From Xylographa opegraphella (taxonomy: Eukaryota), in contig JALDZX010000100.1 of assembly GCA_022813865.1 (NCBI GenBank), forward strand, positions 1-42,848: 42,848 bases of DNA. The letters run 5' to 3'. Each line of letters begins with the position of its first letter. The stretch's first letter is position 1. This document shows, piece by piece, positions 232 through 32,905 of the stretch. Both the position numbers and the translations under genes were made by a program. Below the pieces are notes generated by a model. That model was not told the DNA's origin. It made no database searches and saw only the letters and a list, made by a program, of their open reading frames with translations.

Positions 232-2019
232 ATGGTTCGAATTGCTGTGGAAGGCTGCGTCAGTCATCATGAAATTCAATGTATAAGAAGTACTTACATT
301 TTAACTAGGGCCACGGTACACTACATGGTATATATGCATCCATTACGAAAAGCTGCGAGGTTAATGGCTGGGACGGTGTTGACTTGCTCATCATTGGCGG
401 AGACTTTCAAGTAAGTCAAATGTTTTATATATGTAAAATATACATTAAGGTCTTCACAGGCCGTACGCAATTCTTACGACCTCAACTGCATGTCTGTACC
501 CTCAAAATTTCGCGAAATCGGCGACTTTCACGAATACTATAGTGGTCAGCGTAAGGCTTCTTATCTTACAGTATTTGTTGGAGGCAACCACGAAGCGAGT
601 AATCATCTGTTTGAGCTCTACTATGGGGGCTGGGTGGCTCCGAATATATACTATCTCGGGGCTGCTAACGTAATTCGATTCGGACCTCTTCGCATAGCAA
701 GCATATCAGGAATCTGGAAAGGTTACAACTACAATAAACCACATCACGAACGGCTTCCGTACAACCAGGACGATGTCAAGAGTATTTATCATGTCAGAGA
801 GTACGATGTGAGGAAGCTTTTGCAGGTCAGGACTCAAGTGGATATCGGTATTAGCCACGACTGGCCGCGAGGTGTAGAGTGGATGGGGAATTGGAAGGCC
901 TTGTTTGCGAAGAAGGACCTCTTCGAGGCAGATGCTCGAGCTGGCACACTTGGGAGCTCTGCCGCGAGATATCTCATAGATCATTTGCGTCCGCCATACT
1001 GGTTTGCGGCTCATCTCCACTGCAAGTTCTCTGCCTTAGTTGACCACAGGCTGGCAAAGCACCACCATGATTCGAGGTCTCTAAAGCCCGAGCTGCAGCA
1101 CGCGGCATTGTTGAAAGGAGAAAGTAATACCAACACTGTTCAGCCAAATCTTGAAAACACGCTATTACCCGGCCATATCTCCAATATAAAATTCAACGCA
1201 GATGAAATCACTCTCGACATGGAACTCGACGAGGAATCACAGTCAGCCGAGAATCGCCTCCAAAAAACTCTCAAAAGCCAAAAGCAGTCAGCCACACTCT
1301 TGCAGAACGATGGTCAGACCGTGCCAGAGGATCTCCGAGCACAACTGCCTGCTTCATTCGCACGGCCCTTGCGATCATCACCTAGCGCAACTGCTCCATC
1401 ACCAGAAGGCATTACTAACACCACCACGCGATTTCTTGCGCTCGACAAATGCCTGCCACATCGTAAGTTCCTGCAGATTCTCGAGGTCGACCCTGTTGGT
1501 GTTACTACCACTACAGAGTCATCCAAGCCATATGGTCTGGCCTACGATAAAGAATGGCTTGCCATTACTCGTGTTTTCGCAGACAATCTCGTTGTGGGCG
1601 ATTCCTCATCTTCAGTACCCCAACATAAAGGCGAAGCATACTACCAACCTTTAATCGAGCAAGAGGAGGTCTGGGTAGAGAAAACCCTCGTACAGCACGG
1701 CAAGATGGACGTCCCGCATAACTTCCAACTCACTGCTCCTACATATGATAAGAGCATCGGTATCGGAACGCAGGAACAGCCGAAGGAGTACACGAACCTG
1801 CAAACCGTACAGTTCTGCAATATGCTTGGGATACCAAACCCATTTCACTTGAGCGAACAGGACCGTGAAACCAGGATGCTGGCTGGACCTAAAGCGGAGG
1901 CACCGAGGATAGGAGGCGGCAGAGGTGGTGACAGAGGAGGCAGAGGTGGCAATCGGTGGGGAGGAAGAAGTGAACGGGGTCGAGGACGGGGAAGAGGGAG
2001 CGGAGCATGGAGACACTAG
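232..2019 (+). CDS. DBR1: RNA lariat debranching enzyme; introns 259-308 and 411-459
   Basis: Spliced N-terminus MVRIAVEGC|GHG...IGGDFQ|AVRN, then GGNHEASNHL, SHDWP, AHLH and TRFLALDKCLP metallophosphoesterase/Dbr1 motifs; C-terminal RGG tail. Confidence 0.96.
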
Positions 2020-3558: not shown

Positions 3559-4143
3559 GATAGAAGGAAATACAATAGCGAGTGTGAAATTTAAGAATAG
3601 ACGCCAATGATGCGTCAAAGCTCTCCGACTGGACGTGTTCCTCCTCTGCTTCTTGTTACAGGGCTTCGTACATTAGGTCGGATGGTTGAACAACGTGCCT
3701 CTTTATTCAGGCATCATTCATCAGGAAATCGCAAGAAGACTGCAAACAGCTTGGGGAATCTGCGCACACTGACCGAAAGTGCCAGGACACGAAATGGACC
3801 ACGAAAAGAAGGCAATGGGAAAGGAGCGGTGAAACGAAAACGATCGAGAGCAAAAAACCTGTGGCGCAGCAGGGCCGCCATGCCAAGATCTTCGTCAGGG
3901 GTTTGAGAACGTGTACCGGGCGCCGGGAGCCGATTGCCGAGGAACCTTATTCACTACTTCCTTGGCACGAAACTCTAAATGCGCTTTTGTGTTTGCTCAC
4001 CGCGTCGAAATTCACTTTCATGTCATCTCGTCCCGGTCTTTCATCTTGCATCGTTCAGCTTGAGCTCTACGGCCCACTCACCCGTTTCTTCTCAACTCGT
4101 AGGATGATTTTGCAGTGGAAGATCCTTTACGGTGTATAAAATC

Positions 4144-6590: not shown

Positions 6591-7512
6591 TCAGGTGGCG
6601 CTTAGACCACCATCAAGGTTTAAAACACAATTGTTGGCGTATGCATTGGTAGCGAGGAACATGGCGGCGTCGGCGATCTCATCTGGCGTTCCGAAGCGTT
6701 CCTGCGGTATTGACTGCAGGGCGGCTGAGCGAGCTTCTTTGGTCATGGCTGTGTTGTGGTTTAAGTCAGCTTTCCGTCTTACAACGTCGGGGACGTTCAG
6801 TCTACCTTCGGTCATCGACGTTTCTACATAGCCAGGGACAATGGCGTTTACTCTAATATTCGAAGGTCCAAGCTCGGCTGCAAGTGATCTCGTGAGGCCT
6901 GCAAGGGCTTAAGTCACCCACCGTCCTTGCAATGGGAGTCAAGGACTTACCAAGGACACCGGCTTTGGAAGCTGCATAGACTGTAGAGCCCCTTCCACCC
7001 TTGACCCCCAGTAACGAAGCTACGTTGATGATACATGCTGTATTGCTAGGCTTCCTACACTGCCGCATCATTGCCTTGCCAATGATTTGGCAGCCCCAGA
7101 TTGAACCCATCAGATTAGTCTGTATGACATGCTCGGCCGTCTGGCACTTTGTCGTTACCAACAGCGACGAATGGGCCACTCCTGCTGCGTTGACGAGGAT
7201 ATCAACATTACGCTATCCGACAAGTCTGATGAGAGCCTGCAGTGAGCTAAATCATTGGCTATTACTGACCATATCGTACCCTATATCCATCCAAAAACTT
7301 CGTCGCTTTACATCCCCTATTGCAATCTTCACCTCGATGGCAGTGTCTTGACTGATGGCTTCTGACGCTTGGTTCAGAGCATCGCTGCGTCCCACGAGGA
7401 TCATTCTCTCCACGCCATGCGTGGCAAACAGTCGAGCAATCGCGAGACCTATTCCCCGGGAAGCGCCGGTAACAATTACATGTTTACCGGCGAGTTTCAT
7501 CTGTTGCGCCAT
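6591..7512 (-). CDS. Short-chain dehydrogenase, 3-oxoacyl-[ACP] reductase-like (probably mitochondrial FAS, Oar1/CBR4-like); about 3 introns
   Basis: TGASRGIG, YAASKAG catalytic YxxxK, IPQERFGTPDEIADAAMFL...LNLDGG; start could be 7512 or 7500. Confidence 0.85.
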
Positions 7513-7599
7513 ATCGAGGTTCCTTACATTTGCCGGTTGAGATGGCTGCTGGTCCGTCCCGAGTTTGCACTTCCAACCCATACGAGCTAGGATTTTCCT

Positions 7600-7639
7600 A
7601 CGCGTTTGGGCGCGTTAAAGCCGTCACATGCCGACGCGT
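7600..7639. promoter_or_regulatory. Cluster of MCB-like (ACGCGT) elements in the divergent SDR/ELC1 promoter
   Basis: ACGCGT 7600-7605, GCGCGT 7610-7615 and ACGCGT 7634-7639 within a ~205 bp intergenic gap. Confidence 0.5.
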
Positions 7640-7718
7640 TTAGCTCCTGGCTGCGAGGGATCTCTTCTGACACAATGTGAGACCTTTCAAGGATATCATC
7701 GTCCTCATTACCGCGCCA

Positions 7719-8233
7719 ATGATGGCGAAAACCCTGTCTGAATATGTGACCCTTGTTTCCAACGACGGCTTCGAGTTTGTGGTTCGTAGAGACAGCGCCT
7801 ACGTGGCAGGGACGGTCAAGCGCATGCTGGATCCCGCAAGTGAGGCGCAACGGTCTCAGCTTCGAGATGTTCACCAGCTTATGTAGTGCTCTAGGTAACT
7901 TTGCGGAAGCTGTCAGTGGACGCTGTGTATTTGAGAATATCAAGTATGTGTGGAAATCGGTTTGTGTTATAGCTACCATAGCACATGAGGACCAGTAATA
8001 CGAAACCACGTACTATTCGACTGATTTGTGTTTCAAGTGGCGTGGTGCTAGAGAAGGTCTGCGAGTATCTATACTACAACGAGAAACATCGCAATGCCAA
8101 AGATGTGCCCGATATGGACATCCCACCGGAGTTGTGCTTGGAGCTATTGATGGCGGCCGATTATCTGAATGGTGAGGTGTCCTATTTGGTTTACCGTAGG
8201 TTCGCCAGCAGAGCTAATGCTATTGCAGTCTGA
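7719..8233 (+). CDS. ELC1: Elongin C; 3 introns
   Basis: YVTLVSNDGFEFVVRR...AGTVKRML, NFAEA, VLEKVCEYLYYN, IPPELCLELLMAADYL; start 7719 or 7722. Confidence 0.95.
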
Positions 8234-8588: not shown

Positions 8589-9977
8589 TCATTTATTATC
8601 TACCCCTTTCAAGCCCACCGCCCGACCTCTTCCCTTTCCACGTCCTCTACCACCGCCCCTTTTGCCCCCACTTCCCCTCGAGACCCGTTCATACAGCTTC
8701 TCGTTCCCGAAGCCCGCATCCGAAATGCGCAGATAGCTTACAACCCCTTGATCTACGATTGCCAATATAACGTTCCTCCATCCATGCTTCAACTTGTGAT
8801 AGAGCTGCCACTCCATGGTAGGTGGAGGGGGATCATACGGGACGCTACTCAACAGATCGTCCAAGTGGTCGAGTACCGGTACGTTGTCTTCGCGTGCATT
8901 TACTACAGCAATACGGAAGTCGGGCGGCCCAGGAGCCGACTTCTTGAAGACCGGTCGAGGTTTCCAGACGTAGAACGAGCATCGAAGGTGGTGGGCGTCT
9001 TTATTCGCAACGTTCTCGCTGGTATTTGTCTTCTCCAGATTGCACTCCGTGTCCGCCAAATTGGGGTCAAGCGTATGCTGGCTATGTAATATTGGATTGT
9101 AGAATGGAATTATGTTGAGGCTGTGGTAGATGTCCTCTGTCTATGGATTAGCTTCGCCTACAAAGAATGACTAAGTATTATGGCCCACTGTAGCTTCTAT
9201 ACAGTCCTGGCCGAACGAGAGGGCCGAAGGCGACAGGTGATTCCTTTTCTTGGCTATTGAGCAGATTGTCCAGCAGATTGTACAGCCATTCGAAACCACT
9301 CTTTGTTCGAGCCGGAGGTACTACGACACTCTCGACCTCTTCAGCTCCCCAGTCCTCAGGGTACCACGCCGGACTTCGCTGTACAGCATATCCGATGCGT
9401 TTCAATCCCCCATAGACAGAGTATCTTTCTAGCGTCAAACCGAGTCTTCCTATCAGGACCGCATACGCGGATTGCAGGCTGATCGGCAAGCCGTCTTCGT
9501 CGCTCTCAGCAACCGGCCATCTCAAGTCAAGATTACCACGCTCGATCAGATATAGAGCCTCTTCTGGCAGCAGATAGAGTGTGCCATCCGCTTCGGCTTT
9601 GCCCATAGTTCGGATGTGCGGGCCCTTCGGGTGGTCTACGGCAGTACGCCCACTCTGGGGGTTGTATATCGCGACCATCTGAGATTTGGGCGTGTGTATG
9701 CGAGGGTAGGACAATGCGTCCTGCATTGCGGTTCGAGATTTGGATAACGCATCTTGCTGACTGCTCGTGCCATGTGACTCGAAATCTTTTTCTCCCCGGC
9801 GGGGCAGTGAAGGTTGCTCTGTAGTCCTGATCCCATTAGCTTGATGGCAGAATCGGCGGAACACTCTCACAGTGAGAGGTTGGTCAAAAAGCGAAAGTCC
9901 TGGGTTTCGTCCGTGAGGTCACTGTCCCCTTGATGTGGGCTGGTAAACACTAGCGTATCTTCGTCAAATTCTGCCAT
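8589..9977 (-). CDS. SEN54: tRNA-splicing endonuclease subunit Sen54; about 2 introns
   Basis: Exon 1 MAEFDED...DLTDETQDFRFL, then SLPRRGEKDFE, LLPEEALYLIERG, LERYSVYGGLKRIGY, FKKSAPGPPDFRIAVV, LKHGWRNVILAIVDQGVVSYL. Confidence 0.92.
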
Positions 9978-10028
9978 ATTCCGCTTCCACGACTTCGAGC
10001 CTTTGTCCACCTCATCCGGACACGGAGC

Positions 10029-10065
10029 AAAAAGCTATGCAGCTTCGACCGCACGATAGGCAAAA
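10029..10065 (-). terminator. Candidate Pol III terminators for tRNA-Leu (T4 at 10062-10065, T5 at 10029-10033)
   Basis: Oligo-T runs 11 and 43 nt downstream of the tRNA 3' end on the minus strand. Confidence 0.55.
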
Positions 10066-10075
10066 GCATTGGACG

Positions 10076-10176
10076 TGATGTCGGTGGGATTCGAACCCAC
10101 GCGGTTTCCCACTACGGACTTTCCAGCGTGCTGAATTGACCTAAACGTAGCGCCATAACCACTCGGCCACGACACC
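10076..10176 (-). tRNA. tRNA-Leu(UAG) with a 22-nt intron (10118-10139)
   Basis: Minus strand folds: acceptor GGTGTCG/CGACATC plus A, D arm GCCGAGTGGTTATGGC, anticodon stem CTACG/CGTAG with TT-TAG-G, intron after position 37, variable arm, T arm GTGGG-TTCGAAT-CCCAC; AT-rich TATA-like element ~30 nt upstream. Confidence 0.95.
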
Positions 10177-10404
10177 ATATAAGAAATTCAGGTTTGGTAT
10201 TGGTAAATATATTTTTTTTTGCCAAAGAAATAAAAAATTCCGAGAAGCAAGGTCTGTGATGCCATTTATCTGACTTTGAGATTCACGGGTGAAGTACAAC
10301 CACTGCCCATCAGCAACCGTATCTGCAGGCCACAGCCCAGGATCAAAGTTTCACAGTATCACCAGAGCTCTTCGAGGAAGCTGCAAATTCTGGTCCATGG
10401 CATA

Positions 10405-10974
10405 ATGGACGCGAGACTACGTTTCTTAGTCATGGCGGCTCATACATATGCAATTACTGCTCCAGCTACAACTGCTCATCTGCAAATGCATTGTAATGAG
10501 CTTTTGGTTACAACCGAGGCAAAGAAACATGCCCAGCTTATCAATAGTGGATGTCCATCTTGTGGCAGTATCCTTATTCCAGGCTCGAGTAGCCACATCA
10601 CTGTTGTCAAACCTCAAGCCAAAATGCCCGGACACGGTTCAAGCAGTTCGGCTGTGAGGAATGGCAGGAAGGAGAGACATGTCTCAAGGAGTGAACAACC
10701 ACCAAGACTACGACGGAACGAGTGCACAAGATGTGGCCGATATACGGAGATTGCTTTGCCAAAGCTTGAGCATACCAACGCCTCAATGAAGCACAAACAA
10801 ATATCGACAACAGTACCGGCCCTGAGACCTCGTGTCACGAGTTCAAATACTGCGGGCGACAAGCGACAGAGGAATCGAAAAAGGGGAGGATTGAAATCGT
10901 TACTAGCGGAAGCCAAGGAGACCACAAAACCGTCCACAAGCCTTGATCTTATGGATTTTATGAAGAGTGCATGA
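10405..10974 (+). CDS. Rpr2/Rpp21/Snm1-family zinc-binding subunit, most like RNase MRP Snm1
   Basis: MDARLRFL start, CPSCGSILIPG...CTRCG zinc motif, basic KRQRNRKRGGLKSLL and terminal LDLMDFMKS resembling Snm1 C-termini. Confidence 0.8.
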   Translation: MDARLRFLVMAAHTYAITAPATTAHLQMHCNELLVTTEAKKHAQLINSGCPSCGSILIPGSSSHITVVKPQAKMPGHGSSSSAVRNGRKERHVSRSEQPPRLRRNECTRCGRYTEIALPKLEHTNASMKHKQISTTVPALRPRVTSSNTAGDKRQRNRKRGGLKSLLAEAKETTKPSTSLDLMDFMKSA

Positions 10975-12022: not shown

Positions 12023-14140
12023 ATGCAGGACGACCGAGAGAGTTGTCGTCGCGAAGAGGAGGAGGAGAGAGCTGAGCAGCGCGCGAAGCTCTTCCTGCCG
12101 GTTGGAGAGAAAGTTGGTGGGTTTGTAATTAATGAAGAGGACATACAAGGCTCTCAGCTCGTCGAAGAGATTGAGAGCCTATGTATGAACTGCGAAGGAA
12201 ACGTTAGTTGAAGCGTTAGCTCGTGAGAATATGGATGTTACTGATGGTATTGCCAGGGTATCACCCGTCTACTGCTCACAAAAATACCATACTTTCGTGA
12301 GATCATACTGATGTCCTTCTTCTGCGAGCACTGTCATTTTCGGAATACCGAGGTGCAGTCTGCTGGGGAAATTCAAGAGAAGGGCGCAAAGTATACTCTG
12401 AAGATGGATTCTATGCCAGACATGGAGAGACAGATGGTCAAAAGTGATTCTGCCATATTGAAAGTAGAAGAGTTGGATCTCGAAATCCCAGCCGGACGTG
12501 GGAGGCTCACAAACGTCGAAGGTATCCTTGCTGAAATTCTAAGAGACTTGGAAGATTCGCAGAAAGGGCGCAAGCGTGAATACCCTGAATTGTACGAAAA
12601 GATCGATATGGTCGTGCAGTCGCTGCTCAAATACATGATGGGCCAACGATTCCCATACACGATATCTCTCGATGATCCAGCTGGTAATTCTTGGATAGAG
12701 CCATCACCATTGGATAGCGGTGGAAAGTATACTAGAACAGAATATTCGAGATCCCCCGAGCAGAATCAGGCTCTTGGTCTCCGGGGCGGTGAATCGGAAC
12801 CCGAGGTAAAGAATGTGGACGAGAGAATGGAACGTCTCGCAATTACCGAGGACGCTCTCGCCGCAAAATCCGATGAGGCGACTCTGGAAGATGTGAATAT
12901 TGTCGATGGCCAGGTGTATGAACTTCCTTGCCGTTGCCCTGGGTGCGGCGGAGGCGCCGCGATGAACATCACGATGGTTAAAATTCCGTACTTTAAAGAA
13001 GTAATCCTCACTGCTATTGTTTGTCCGCAATGTGGATATCGGACAAGCGATGTCAAGACAGGTGGCGAATTTCCCCAAAAAGGTCAACGTATCTGGCTAG
13101 ATGTTGAAAACGCTACAGACCTTACTCGCGATATCTTGAAGTCTGAAACTTGTTGCCTCAAGATTCCAGCATGCTCAGTCGAAGTACAGCCAGGAACGAT
13201 GGGCGGCCGCTTCACGACAGTCGAGGGGCTACTAACTCAGGTTAGGGACGACTTACGGGGAGCAATATTCGATACCGATGATGTGGACAGCTTGGGTGGA
13301 GACTCGATGCCACCAGAGCAAAAATCAGCCTGGGCTTCTTTTTTTGACAAGATCAACTCCGCTATTCGTGGGGAGATGAGATACACAATCCTAATGGAAG
13401 ATCCGCTCGCCAACAGCTATGTACAGAGTTTCACTGCTCCGGAGCCCGACCCTCAAATTCGGACAGAGGAATACACTAGGAATCAGGAGGAGGACGAAGA
13501 GCTCGGACTGACAGACATGCGCACACATTTAGATGCAGAAGGCCAATATGTCAAAGAGATCCCAGGTCGCCAGGATGCCTCTCATGCTTCAGCTTTGGTT
13601 GAGCGTTTGGACGGCTCATCAAAGATATTCGAGGGGAATACGAAGGGAGTGAAGCACACCGTCCCCTCGGTCGTCGTTCCATTCGAGAACGAAGAAGAAA
13701 ATTTGCCAAAAGACGAAGACAAGAAACATGTCGACATGATATCTATTGAAGATCCAGCCCTGGATACAACCACCGATCATCAGCGACCATTGCAGCAATC
13801 TGAAAGTAAAACGATGAATGATTTAAGCGGAACTGAAGCGTTTTCGAATCCGAATCCAGTTGCCGTCGAAGACGATCAAGCTCATACTAATCGCCACGAA
13901 GTATTGTTGAGCAAAGAAGACTCCCGAACGCATTCGGCAAAGGAAGCCGAGGCACCGCTTACCCCGGTCTTAAACCCCTTTGACAACAATGGAACTCAAT
14001 TTGGACCACAGGCGGCATCCATGCAACGTGGCGACGCGAAGACACATGCTGCCACTGTATCTCATAAACAAATATTGCCAGGTACCGAAACTGAACCAGC
14101 ACATGTGGTAGCTGCGGGGGAGCCGCTCATTATCGTATGA
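12023..14140 (+). CDS. ZPR1: Zinc finger protein Zpr1 (eEF1A chaperone); intron 12203-12256
   Basis: EIESLCMNCEGN|GITRLLLTKIPYFREIILMSFFCEHC, DDPAGNSWI, second module CPGC...IPYFKEV...CPQCGYR, GGRFTTVEGLL, EDPLANSYVQ. Confidence 0.95.
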
Positions 14141-14720: not shown

Positions 14721-15325
14721 TCAGCCAGCCAGCGGATTCGCGTGCACAGTAACGTTCTTGATCACGATCTTCTCCTTCGGTCTGTTCTTTCCATCAATCT
14801 CTACGGCCTCTATCGCCGCTAGAACCTGCTCTCCTCCTAATACTCTGCCAAAAACGGTATTCTTCCCATCTAAATGGGAGGCAGGCGCAAAGCACACGAA
14901 GAACTGGCTGCCATTGCTCATGGGGCCTTTGTTGGCCATGCTTATAATCCCACGGGCATTGTGACGCAACGACGGGCGGATCTCATCCTCAAAGGGCTCA
15001 TGCCAGATGGACGTCGAAGTCTTAGTGGAAGAAGATGGGCGAGAGCCAGTCTGGAACATGAAGGTGGGGACGAGACGGTGAATGGGGGAAGAGTCGTAGA
15101 AAGAGGAGGCGCACAGGGCCAAGAAGTTCTGGATTTGGTCAGTCGTGTTACTCGTTCATTGGGGGAATTCTAGCGCCACCATATGCCTACCTCTGCGGTT
15201 TTGGGGACGCTTTCGCAGAAGACTTCGACTTTGAGATCACCGAGATCGGTGTGCAGCTAAGGGACGCAGGTCAGCCAGTCGTGGTCGGCAAAGTTTGTGG
15301 TTTTCGGACGTACAGTGACAGACAT
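14721..15325 (-). CDS. PPIL3: Cyclophilin PPIL3/Cyp10-type peptidyl-prolyl isomerase; 2 introns, 12-nt first exon
   Basis: MSVT|LHTDLGDLKVEVFCESVPKTAE|NFLALCAS, HNARGIISMANKGP, HLDGKNTVFGRV, terminal VTVHANPLAG. Confidence 0.9.
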
Positions 15326-15809
15326 TCTGCTCAAGCAACGATACTAGCATCTGATATTTGACTCTCAAAAGCGCATCCGGAATACATTACGAAACCCATA
15401 GCATTTACGGCGCCCCTCCATGTGAAGGCAGTGAAATCGAAATAAATTGCTGACGACTTTAAGGTTTACAGGCTCGACAGGGATTCTGGCAAGGCTGACT
15501 TTGGCCCATGCAGGCGGGGCCGCTAGTGTGTTTGGCACAAGCTTGAATGAATGAGATCTCGGAACAAGCACCACACGCAACACAAAGCACGGCAACAAAA
15601 CCCCCTCCCCACTCGGTTGCATTATTAGTTGCATCTCTGTCACGGTCCCCAGATCTTCATAGAACATACCAAGCGATTCGAGTCGAATTGAAGTTACCAT
15701 GCGCCATATGATATCCCATCTCCAGTTCCAGCTTTGATGTTTCGTCCCCCAAGACTCCATCATACGTTATTATGGGCAGGCTGAGAACGCGCTATTTGAC
15801 CCGAACAAT

Positions 15810-17070
15810 ATGATGGCGTTCGTGCGCGTTGTCAGTCAGGTTCCGAATCAGCATATGCTCGTCGGCTTCCCCGGTATAAGCGCTACACTTCCCCGGTTGG
15901 AAGGCAAGGTGGAGATCCGGCCCACGTTGGGTGTTTCGGCGCCTGTGTCGATCTCCCTGGTGACCATCTATCTTCAGCGGCGCGAGACTATTCATCCTTC
16001 GGCCGATTCGGTCACAAAGAAGCACCTTGCAGCGCCCCGCAAAGAGATTGTTGACATTGTCGGCAAGGAAATGTTATTGTTCCGATGCTCGGCAGGTAAA
16101 GAGGCGGAGAACATCTACGCGATGGATCTACCGTTCGTCCTGTTTATCCCGTATGGCAGAGAAGGCGGCGAGACGACCCGCAGGATCCCTCCAGCAAGTC
16201 TGCAATTGCCTAGTCGGACGGTGGAAACACTTTATGAGCTGGTGGTCACGGTGCAACAGGGCCAAGCAGACCAGAAGAAGTATCACTTTCCAGTTCCCAT
16301 AACGCGCTACGACACACTGTCCACCTTTGGCATGTACAACCGCCCGGAATCGGCAGAACGGATATCGGACCATCTGGTCACCCTAGGCATATCTTTACCA
16401 CGATGGTCGTATGGCCCATTAGATCCGGTCAGTGTCTACATCAAACTTTCACCAAATCCCGATTGGCTGGGTAAAGCGAGAAAGGTGACGATACAAAAAA
16501 TTACGATCGGAATCGAAGAGGAGATAATATACAATCATGAGGGAGATGAGCCACAAAGAAAGTTCAAGACGTTGGCGAAGCAGACGCAAACAGTGGGCGT
16601 CAAGATGCCCGAAGCAGGCTATTTCACGAATCTGGGACTGGTGTTCCCCACTAAGGATCTGCGGGATAATGATGGCATCTTACCGCGCGGGAAGCAGGCA
16701 TTTCCGATGTACGGTGTCAGTGGCTTTACTACAACCGGAAGCTTATACAAGATAGAATATTATTTGACTGTCAAGGTTCGTGAATTGGAACCCCCATGGA
16801 AGCGTCAGAATGACTAATCGTTCCCAGGCTCATATGACATCGGCAAAAGACATTCTACTTCGACAACCCATTGTCGTATGTCCTCTCGATCACGCCGGTT
16901 GCAAAGAAGAAATGGAAGCGATTGAGCAAGCGGCCAAAGACGCCGCGCACATCAATGCCGATGATCCTATGCTTCCCGCACCCTTAATTGTGCGGACGAA
17001 CGATCACAACGCTCTACATATCCTCGGAATGACTATGGTAGGCAAAGAAAGGAAACCTCTCATCGACTAG
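15810..17070 (+). CDS. Arrestin-like protein (possibly Art1/Rgl1-like); intron 16776-16827
   Basis: 335-codon ORF spliced in frame to a second exon; GFPGISATLPRLEGKVEIR, LPFVLFIP, PPASLQLP, GFTTTGSLYKIEYYLTVK arrestin-like strands. Subfamily recalled from memory, not verified. Confidence 0.7.
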
Positions 17071-21290: not shown

Positions 21291-22534
21291 GTTTTACCAC
21301 GGTTGTGTAGGAAGATGGTTGAGGACAGGAAGAGATGTGAGGAGCAAAAATCCGACGGGGGGTGGCATTGACTAGAGGAAATTGTGGGCTAGATCACACT
21401 TAGACACGCAAGTGACAATCAACATAGGCCGACGCAGAAAAAACATAAGACAGAGTCCGAAAACGAATCATTTATTTGGCGGAGGTCCAACTGTTCTGCT
21501 CTGTGCAACCAGATATCTGGAGAAACCATCTGTTCACGACCGAGATTGTACACGCTGCTTGACATCAGGTAACTTGTGTCCGTTTCATCATCTATTCCAT
21601 CTCGTCTTTCAGCTATCAGCACCATGGTTTCCACGACCAGATTAACACGATCACATCGACAATATGAGCACCTGTATAACGAGAGAGTCCTGGAAGATCT
21701 ACTTCGTCCACCACCCAGCCGGATCCGAGTGGAGCGTTCTTACCATTGATGGAGACTATGAGGAGTAGCTGGTGTTCCTCCCAGAGCTCACTTGGGGCTC
21801 TCGACTTCAACTTCCACCTGGAACACATCAGACGAATGATTATTCAAGTTCTGATGTGTGACAATCTTCACGGCGAGATCATAGAGGTACGCATGTAGTC
21901 TTGATGTCGGCCAAAACCGGGACTGGGATGTAGATGCGCTAACCGGATTAGAAACGAGAGTCCGAAATGCTCCGTAGGTGCAGTCTCTATCATCACGATG
22001 CAGATGCCAAGTGTTTGGATGAACGGGCTGGGGTAACAAACACCGAGTGCAAAAGATTTCAAGATATTGAGCTGTCCTGCAAAGCCGGAATATCAGTCAC
22101 CCCTTGACAAAACCAGCTGGAGCCAGACAACGACTCTTCCCTGCTCGAAAGGCAAAAGGGCAAAACATACAACAGCTGGGATTCGCTGGTGGTCACCCGC
22201 CCAACTACTAGCCAGCCGATCTCAAGGTTATGTATGCCAGAGCGGACGGGATAGCCAGTTCTCTTGAGTCTATGGTCGTATGTGATGGAGCTCGGTTGGA
22301 AAGAAAATCATGATCCAACAACTGGGGAAGTTGAAACATGGTGACATGGGATCATGTGGTCATGGGTTCTGGTTGTGGCAATCCAATATATGCTACCAGC
22401 TGCAGAATCTTATGCTGGGATGATCAAAATCATACATATCTCGCCAGGTTGTCTAACACCTGCATTGATCTATCTGTCTATCGATGAGAGTGAGGGAAGT
22501 GGCCAATCTCATGCCAAACCTGCCCCGATCCCGT

Positions 22535-32807: not shown

Positions 32808-32905
32808 TGCCCCCGACCAGGATCGAACTGGTGACCTCAGGATATCCCAGCTGAGCTGGATCATGAATATGAGACCTGCGTGATAGCCAACTACACCACG
32901 GAGGC
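32808..32905 (-). tRNA. Elongator tRNA-Met(CAU) with a 24-nt intron (32844-32867)
   Basis: Acceptor GCCTCCG/CGGGGGC plus A; anticodon arm CAGGT-CT-CAT-A...A-TCCTG with the U31:U39 mismatch of elongator Met tRNAs; T loop TTCGATC; G1 rather than initiator A1; TATA-like element ~30 nt upstream. Confidence 0.94.

Follow-up and report, generated by a model that had tools for sequence, protein, structure and literature searches.

Upstream of SEN54 in a 42,848-nucleotide (nt) stretch of the genome of the lichen fungus Xylographa opegraphella (the whole of contig JALDZX010000100.1 of assembly GCA_022813865.1, hereafter the window) lies an intron-containing tRNA-Leu(UAG) gene, and the same tRNA recurs beside SEN54 in other fungi. 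The reading that we favour, with a probability of about 0.6, is that this tRNA is an autonomous RNA polymerase III (Pol III) gene that appears to have been kept beside SEN54 by ancient linkage within a conserved block of genes.

A tRNA-Leu(UAG) gene precedes SEN54 in the window

The gene at 8589-9977 is SEN54 (TSEN54), which encodes the structural subunit of the tRNA splicing endonuclease (TSEN). Its second exon matches the Sen54 N-terminal domain PF12928 in Pfam (E=1.7e-25, 89.3 bits against a cutoff of 24), and the three-exon model is 100% identical to the public 430-amino-acid sen54 protein of X. opegraphella (P0005). A search for Sen54 relatives returned 694 at E<=0.001, and PF12928 was present in all 120 of those listed.

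The initial annotation had placed a tRNA-Leu(UAG) with a canonical 22-nt intron on the SEN54 strand, 99 nt before the ATG, and this was borne out both by Rfam and by ARAGORN in intron mode. Rfam gave a match to RF00005 (50.3 bits against a gathering score of 29, E=5.4e-08) whose alignment contains a 25-against-3 insertion at the intron, while ARAGORN called tRNA-Leu(tag) at c[10075,10176], i(38,22), with the 22-nt intron after position 37. A custom covariance model, R1, made from nine tRNA-Leu(UAG) copies, scored the gene at 100.3 bits. The default ARAGORN run found no tRNAs in the window, an artefact of disallowing introns, and exact 21-nt patterns from the tRNA had no match in the genome-contig or viral-contig collections. 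All seven pairs of the acceptor stem, all five of the anticodon stem and all five of the T stem are formed, and the discriminator is A. The sequence is TGGCCGAGTGGT at positions 8-19 and GTGGG TTCGAAT CCCAC in the T-arm; judged against the A-box and B-box consensus, the A-box region and T-loop look standard. By the sequence-level marks of cloverleaf, boxes, intron and terminator, 10076-10176 is a eukaryotic nuclear Pol III tRNA gene. Its 3' end is separated from the SEN54 ATG by a 98-nt spacer, and it sits in a 427-nt divergent intergenic region flanked by two RNA-processing genes, SEN54 and a member of the Rpr2/Rpp21/Snm1 family.

The same tRNA recurs upstream of SEN54 in other fungi

An alignment of 28 Sen54 proteins served to retrieve SEN54 loci from metagenome contigs; we kept the best 80 of 312 confirmed matches, a sample that is biased to closer relatives. 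These 80 loci were scanned with ARAGORN in intron mode, an nhmmer profile and R1, and 38 of the 80 were also scanned with Rfam. Dereplication at 97% protein identity, together with a FastTree phylogeny of Sen54, gave 58 lineages, of which 49 extended 350 nt or more upstream of SEN54; we assigned clades and states to these 49 ourselves.

A tRNA-Leu(UAG) was found upstream of SEN54 in 13 of the 49 lineages, as nine intact genes and four remnants. Twelve of the 13 are Leotiomycete lineages, comprising six with an intact gene, two with a gene that is intact but for extra insertions, two with degenerate remnants, one with a vestige and one with a degenerate tRNA-like element. The thirteenth, L047, comes from a lichen metagenome, groups near the Lecanoromycetes and carries an intact gene that was called by ARAGORN and by R1 (104.6 bits), has all stems paired and is absent from the Rfam list at gathering. 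In the Sen54 tree, all pair-bearing lineages except L047 and the window fall into one clade with 100% local support. All ten intact tRNA-Leu(UAG) copies contain an intron. The gene of L026 was given a Lys call by ARAGORN, which we rejected because Rfam, R1 and a check of the stems identify it as Leu(UAG).

The orientation of the pair varies. Relative to SEN54 the element is antisense in 12 of the 13 lineages, the exception being the degenerate element of L046/L049, which is head-to-tail as in the window. In this mostly head-to-head arrangement the tRNA 5' end points towards the SEN54 ATG, at a distance of 180-305 nt in seven lineages, ~455 nt in L060 and 1.47 kb in L026. The check that the initial annotation had proposed, for a tRNA upstream of SEN54 orthologs, came out positive in these 13 lineages, with the tRNA mostly facing the other way.

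The initial annotation had also cautioned that tRNA genes are common enough for chance adjacency. For the recurrence this caveat does not hold, as ARAGORN in intron mode found just two unrelated tRNA genes in the 507,745 bases of SEN54 loci, and against that density the recurrence of one anticodon family is far beyond chance. A limited literature search found no report of linkage between SEN54 and a tRNA gene.

Several features of individual loci are recorded here in their own right. The element shared by L046 and L049 is a degenerate type-II tRNA-like sequence ~340 nt sense-upstream of SEN54, with TGA at the anticodon position, the T-loop TGCAAAT and a 32-nt GT..TACTAAC..AG insertion; its acceptor stem, GGTGACG, is nearer to the GGTGTCG of the window than those of the other Leotiomycete copies are. 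At ~320-340 (-) in L035, and likewise in L036, a vestige of ~13 nt of the tRNA 5' end (CGGAGTTTGCCGG) remains at the expected site, while close relatives keep the gene. A motif, CGAGGCTG/CAAGGCTG or its complement CAGCCTCG/CAGCCTTG, occurs once or twice in the tRNA-SEN54 spacers of L022, L025, L037, L052, L060, L066 and L070 (also L027 and L035). TGACTC/GAGTCA was found upstream in 6 of 11 loci checked. Neither exact motif is present in the tRNA-SEN54 spacer of the window. Of three sets of DNA contigs compared with the window, X1, probably its source, spans this region in one contig, and no further contig of X1 overlaps the tRNA. In contig set X3, the contig with a SEN54-like piece shows no tRNA piece and tRNA-like pieces lie on three other contigs; as uncovered parts carry no information, we drew no inference from these sets on relatives of Xylographa or on copy number.

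Linkage within a conserved gene block

To place the pair in its genomic setting, the first 22 kb of the window were compared with the SEN54 loci by tblastx and the neighbours were identified by Pfam. The short-chain dehydrogenase directly downstream of SEN54 and the cyclophilin and arrestin-like genes upstream recur near SEN54 in Lecanoromycete-, Leotiomycete-, Dothideomycete- and Eurotiomycete-type loci, so that SEN54 by this comparison belongs to an apparently old block of genes that several classes of filamentous ascomycetes share. Descent could be enough to keep a tRNA gene there at a few hundred nt from SEN54, because a spacer of 100-300 nt leaves little room for rearrangement breakpoints.

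Which genes these are, how they lie, that the pair recurs and that its orientation varies are direct observations; common descent of the linkage we infer from this setting. The tRNA gene would be self-contained, having its own TATA-like element upstream, A and B boxes inside the gene, an intron at the canonical position 37/38 and terminators made of T runs, and would be transcribed independently to give a pre-tRNA-Leu(UAG) that is later spliced by TSEN. It would sit 5' of SEN54 by an old linkage that extends through all sampled Leotiomycetes and L047 at about 180-470 nt (1.47 kb in one lineage). In Xylographa, the tRNA would have been turned onto the SEN54 strand to give the head-to-tail arrangement, and the Snm1/Rpr2-family gene would have come to lie on its other side.

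Several observations weigh against this reading. The pair was found in none of the 7 other Lecanoromycete lineages (no Rfam match in 129,831 bases), none of the 23 Dothideomycete lineages, none of the 5 Eurotiomycete lineages and not in the single L072/73 lineage, and common descent needs several losses because the pair is missing from these 36 lineages. The window copy also differs from the others in orientation, in its acceptor stem (GGTGTCG as against GGGAGTC and similar) and in its anticodon stem, which leaves room for an independent arrival in Xylographa. In that case, the fact that one isoacceptor came to pair with SEN54 repeatedly would speak for selection and not for neutral linkage. 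Pure neutrality is further strained by the behaviour of tRNA loci in general: tRNA gene families proliferate like mobile elements according to PMC4981973, which suggests that such loci usually turn over.

The converse possibility is that the tRNA reached SEN54 in Xylographa independently of the arrangement in Leotiomycetes and L047, and without meaning. Consistent with such a coincidence are the differences in orientation, stems and upstream neighbour, the lack of any tRNA in the seven other Lecanoromycete lineages, and the richness of the window in Pol III genes, with two tRNAs and one 5S gene in 42.8 kb. Set against these, about two unrelated tRNAs per 507,745 bases gives a chance of ~0.1-0.2% that any tRNA lies within a few hundred nt of a named gene, the chance for a particular anticodon family is far lower still, and L047, which groups near the Lecanoromycetes, has the pair as well. 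We therefore regard coincidence as quite improbable and retain ancient linkage as the preferred account.

Signals between the tRNA and SEN54

The initial annotation had built on the arrangement in the window a model of negative feedback, in which some SEN54 mRNAs would carry the pre-tRNA in their 5' leader and a cut by TSEN, or by RNase P/Z, would uncap the mRNA and lower SEN54. Three of its arguments came from the DNA around the tRNA (Table 1). It had first described the Pol III terminators as short, a T4 followed by a T5. This layout is present, but it is not unusually weak: a T4 with a backup T4 or T5 run follows all three Pol III genes of the window, and because this is the norm here, the terminators are not a sign of leaky termination. 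It had secondly taken the AT-rich tract upstream of the tRNA as promoter-like. The tract does lie upstream of the tRNA, but as an argument for an upstream SEN54 start it fails, since the A9-TATATTTA element within it resembles the TATA-like elements that precede the tRNA-Met and most of the related tRNA-Leu genes at comparable distances. By this match in position, the tract is probably an upstream TATA-like element that belongs to the tRNA gene, and the divergent Rpr2/Rpp21/Snm1-family gene may share it. Upstream consensus elements of tRNA genes are described for S. pombe and some plants in PMC11547032.

The third argument, made as a caveat to the model, was an out-of-frame ATG at 10015. This ATG is real, and a second one lies in the same frame at 10069. 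Together they open an upstream open reading frame (uORF) of 39 codons that is out of frame with SEN54 and whose stop falls inside the SEN54 coding start, so that the uORF overlaps the SEN54 ATG. Because of these two upstream ATGs, SEN54 would be poorly translated from any leader that extends over the tRNA. The start of productive SEN54 mRNA would most likely lie within the ~35 nt that precede the ATG, which are downstream of the tRNA, the terminators and both upstream ATGs; with so short a leader the pre-tRNA would form no part of the productive mRNA, and no feedback at the level of RNA would be expected.

The geometry of the window speaks for a pre-tRNA in the leader, as SEN54 follows the tRNA on the same strand after a spacer of just 98 nt; the degenerate tRNA-like element of L046/L049, with its GT..AG insertion, is sense-upstream of SEN54 too. 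Against this stand terminators that are typical for this genome, an AT tract that matches the tRNA's own TATA-like element, the overlapping uORF and a TATA-like stretch that, in L049, separates the tRNA-like element from the SEN54 ATG. Since 12 of the 13 related lineages have the element on the strand opposite SEN54, inclusion in the leader cannot be what is conserved. An RNA made by Pol III read-through would also be uncapped and could not encode Sen54. The more general premise of the model, that yeast TSEN can cleave some mRNAs, is borne out by PMC10485636; the known mRNA targets described there encode mitochondrial proteins, and autoregulation is nowhere named in this review. Taken together, these points leave the feedback model without support, and we consider it very improbable.

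Possible coupling at the level of DNA

If the tRNA and SEN54 are coupled at all, the best reading is that coupling acts at the level of DNA and not through the leader. A tRNA gene bound by TFIIIC/TFIIIB could work within the SEN54 control region as a nucleosome-free boundary, a gate or an activator, and the output of SEN54 would then track the activity of Pol III for either direction of the tRNA. An effect of Pol III occupancy on the SEN54 promoter, which the initial annotation had offered as its alternative, fits an orientation-independent linkage better than the leader model does. The linkage is indeed kept in either orientation, with the tRNA 5' end within 180-305 nt of the SEN54 ATG in seven lineages, and one specific isoacceptor has been retained, with an intron in every intact copy. 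In yeast, tRNA genes can silence or insulate nearby RNA polymerase II (Pol II) genes. The turnover suggested for tRNA loci (PMC4981973) adds to this side, as retention would run against it. Weighing the other way, the conserved gene block provides a neutral explanation, and the tRNA has decayed in 4 of 12 Leotiomycete lineages and is absent from 36 of the 49 with SEN54 intact in all, which means that SEN54 does not depend on a linked tRNA. We judge such DNA-level coupling unlikely but a serious alternative, and selection of the linkage for regulation of any kind somewhat less so, though still doubtful. The account that we prefer to both remains descent within the block.

Linked Leotiomycete tRNA genes carry insertions that resemble spliceosomal introns

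In five Leotiomycete lineages, the SEN54-linked tRNA-Leu(UAG) gene or its remnant contains extra insertions of 32-54 nt in the D-loop, in the D-arm or in the variable arm (Table 1). With exon anchors chosen by eye, we distinguished six insertions and compared them with the spliceosomal intron consensus. Five begin with GT (GTAAGT, GTATGT, GTAAGC, GTAATT and GTAAAA), all six end with AG, and five have a CTRAY branch-like motif (ACTAAC, ACTAAT or TCTAAC) 12-13 nt from the end. The GT, branch-like motif and AG occur together in 4 of the 6, compared with 0.0115% of 200,000 random segments of the same lengths. The insertions thus look like spliceosomal introns.

Removal of the insertions in silico restored an ARAGORN tRNA-Leu(tag) call, i(38,24), with a 24-nt standard intron, in L022 and L070, whose uncut genes were called by neither ARAGORN nor Rfam. 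After removal, the stems of both are fully paired and include lineage-specific compensatory pairs. A T10 run follows the L022 gene. The same operation gave no ARAGORN tRNA-Leu(tag) in L027, L030 or L046. A bulge-helix-bulge reading of the L022 insertion was tried and rejected, as the fold shows none at the junctions.

Whether the insertions are real spliceosomal introns in functional tRNA genes we regard, on these sequence features, as an evenly balanced question. The feature may not be special to the copy linked to SEN54. A limited literature search found no report of spliceosome-type introns in tRNA genes. A bolder, joint reading would hold that the pair is a selected unit, in which one short control region ties the supply of a TSEN subunit to an intron-bearing TSEN substrate, and also that the Leotiomycete tRNA carries true spliceosomal introns in its D-loop and variable arm. 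If so, maturation of this tRNA would need both the spliceosome and TSEN, and the tRNA would be either a Pol III transcript spliced like U6 or a Pol II transcript from a promoter region shared with SEN54. We hold this combination to be distinctly unlikely.

Other features of the window

The divergent neighbour of the tRNA is an RNase P/MRP subunit gene of the Rpr2/Rpp21/Snm1 family. Its product matches PF04032 in Pfam (E=3.2e-10), as do 4 of 4 aligned homologs, and the CxxC...CxxC pattern is invariant. A profile comparison gave a weak match to the yeast SNM1 chain 6w6v_K (E=1.3), the other PDB matches being unrelated zinc-ribbon proteins, and the Atlas neighbours of the gene include Rmp24-like. 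These weak hints lean towards Snm1, the RNase MRP form, over Rpr2. Among the 80 SEN54 loci, a Snm1-like neighbour was found only in L061 and L078, in both cases 2-3 kb downstream of SEN54, and for this reason the Snm1-like gene is not a conserved partner of the tRNA.

On the other side of SEN54, three public protein models (P0100, 1068 amino acids; P0115, 732 amino acids; P0118, 726 amino acids) join Sen54 to its downstream neighbour, and the fused portion corresponds to dehydrogenase domains in the two Aspergillus models among them. The probable cause is that neighbouring gene calls were merged, and not a true fusion. The window further contains a second intron-containing tRNA gene and a dispersed 5S rRNA gene, which are listed with the remaining features in Table 1.

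Table 1. Coordinates of features in the window and of insertion-bearing tRNA-Leu(UAG) genes or remnants at other SEN54 loci
Sequence	Feature	Position	Strand	Details
Window	Short-chain dehydrogenase	6850-8200	-	Pfam; directly downstream of SEN54
Window	SEN54	8589-9977	-	Exons 9977-9871, 9826-9189 and 9136-8589 (stop included); introns of 44 and 52 nt; 430 amino acids
Window	uORF	9950-10069	-	39 codons; ATG 10069; second in-frame ATG 10015; stop TAG 9952-9950
Window	Backup terminator-like run, T5	10029-10033	-	52 nt ahead of SEN54 ATG; +43 from tRNA
Window	First Pol III terminator-like run, T4	10062-10065	-	11 nt past tRNA 3' end
Window	tRNA-Leu(UAG) gene	10076-10176	-	5' exon 10176-10140; intron 10139-10118; 3' exon 10117-10076
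Window	A9 + TATATTTA element	10203-10220	-	Within AT-rich stretch 10205-10240; -28 to -45 from tRNA 5' end
Window	Rpr2/Rpp21/Snm1-family gene	10405-10974	+	189 amino acids; RNase P/MRP subunit; divergent neighbour of tRNA
Window	ZPR1	12245-14140	+	Pfam
Window	Cyclophilin	14724-15155	-	Pfam; upstream of SEN54
Window	Arrestin-like gene	15738-16817	+	Pfam; upstream of SEN54
Window	Dispersed 5S rRNA gene	22164-22283	-	T4 at +7; T4 at +52
Window	tRNA-Met(CAT) gene	32808-32905	-	24-nt intron; T4 at +11; T5 at +33; upstream TATA-like element
L022	Insertion-bearing tRNA-Leu(UAG)	3657-3812	-	Insertion after D-loop position 13
L027 (same in L028, L029)	Insertion-bearing tRNA-Leu(UAG) gene or remnant	~3690-3810	-	Insertion after D-loop position 13
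L046/L049	Degenerate tRNA-like element with insertion	L046:113-239 = L049:1468-1594	+	Insertion after D-loop position 12
L070	Insertion-bearing tRNA-Leu(UAG)	3603-3809	-	Insertions after D-arm GGTTAAGG and in variable arm
L030	Insertion-bearing tRNA-Leu(UAG) gene or remnant	~250-370	-	Insertion after D-arm GGTTAAGG

Discussion

The feature found in the window, a tRNA gene situated within the control region of a Pol II gene, is an arrangement of an already known type. Our result removes an attractive but weakly founded model of SEN54 feedback and puts in its place one intron-containing tRNA gene that has stayed beside SEN54 across fungal classes. If selection maintains this linkage, the two genes would offer a rare example of Pol II and Pol III genes that serve one pathway and have a control region in common. 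The GT-AG insertions may matter more than the finding in the window. If true introns, they would carry the precedent of U6 over to tRNAs and account for tRNA genes that escape standard finders (both ARAGORN and Rfam failed on the interrupted copies), and one would have to ask which polymerase transcribes these tRNAs.

The nearest parallel to the pair itself is in budding yeast, where tRNA-gene-mediated silencing and tDNA barriers are position effects on neighbouring Pol II genes. As in those cases, a Pol II promoter has a Pol III tRNA gene no more than 100-300 nt away, and this gene, in any orientation, could influence the promoter's output through chromatin. Unlike the yeast effects, which are generic to tRNA genes, here one tRNA species has been kept beside one gene across fungal classes, an arrangement known from sequence alone.

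A second comparison is with the mRNAs that TSEN cuts. In S. cerevisiae these include CBP1, whose fragments are degraded and whose cleavage stops when a deletion in Sen54 mislocalises TSEN (PMC10485636). As summarised in that source, all known yeast targets encode mitochondrial proteins and have no obvious pre-tRNA-like fold, and a substrate is recognised by TSEN-dependent cleavage products and by the location of its mRNA at the mitochondrial surface. Among the targets given there (PMC10485636), none is the mRNA of a TSEN subunit and none contains a real pre-tRNA. The geometry of the window does allow a pre-tRNA on the sense strand of a SEN54 mRNA, and that of 12 of the 13 related lineages is antisense.

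For the Leotiomycete insertions, the nearest precedent is the mRNA-type introns of fungal U6 genes, since U6 is also a small structured Pol III RNA (PMC5855946). Some fungal U6 genes contain up to four introns, which have the canonical signals (5' splice site, branch site, 3' splice site) but otherwise show no conservation and are in part specific to a lineage, and the U6 intron of S. pombe is removed by the spliceosome (PMC5855946). U6, unlike a tRNA, lies within the spliceosome's active site, which explains its gain of introns by reverse splicing; the tRNA insertions, for their part, are documented at the level of DNA sequence.

Ectopic and multiple introns are also described in the nuclear tRNA genes of Cyanidioschyzon merolae (PMC3728597, PMC9602550), and these, like the Leotiomycete insertions, interrupt the tRNA outside position 37/38, the D-arm included. 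The Leotiomycete insertions differ in having the signals GT, CTRAY (branch-like) and AG, and no bulge-helix-bulge is seen in the fold of L022. It is at bulge-helix-bulge motifs that the tRNA introns of C. merolae are cut by the tRNA endonuclease. Finally, the tRNA-Sec of Trypanosoma brucei is transcribed by Pol II (PMC2943599). While it concerns another organism and another tRNA, with no spliceosomal intron, it provides a precedent for a nuclear tRNA made by Pol II, which would be one route by which spliceosomal introns in a tRNA gene could be serviced.

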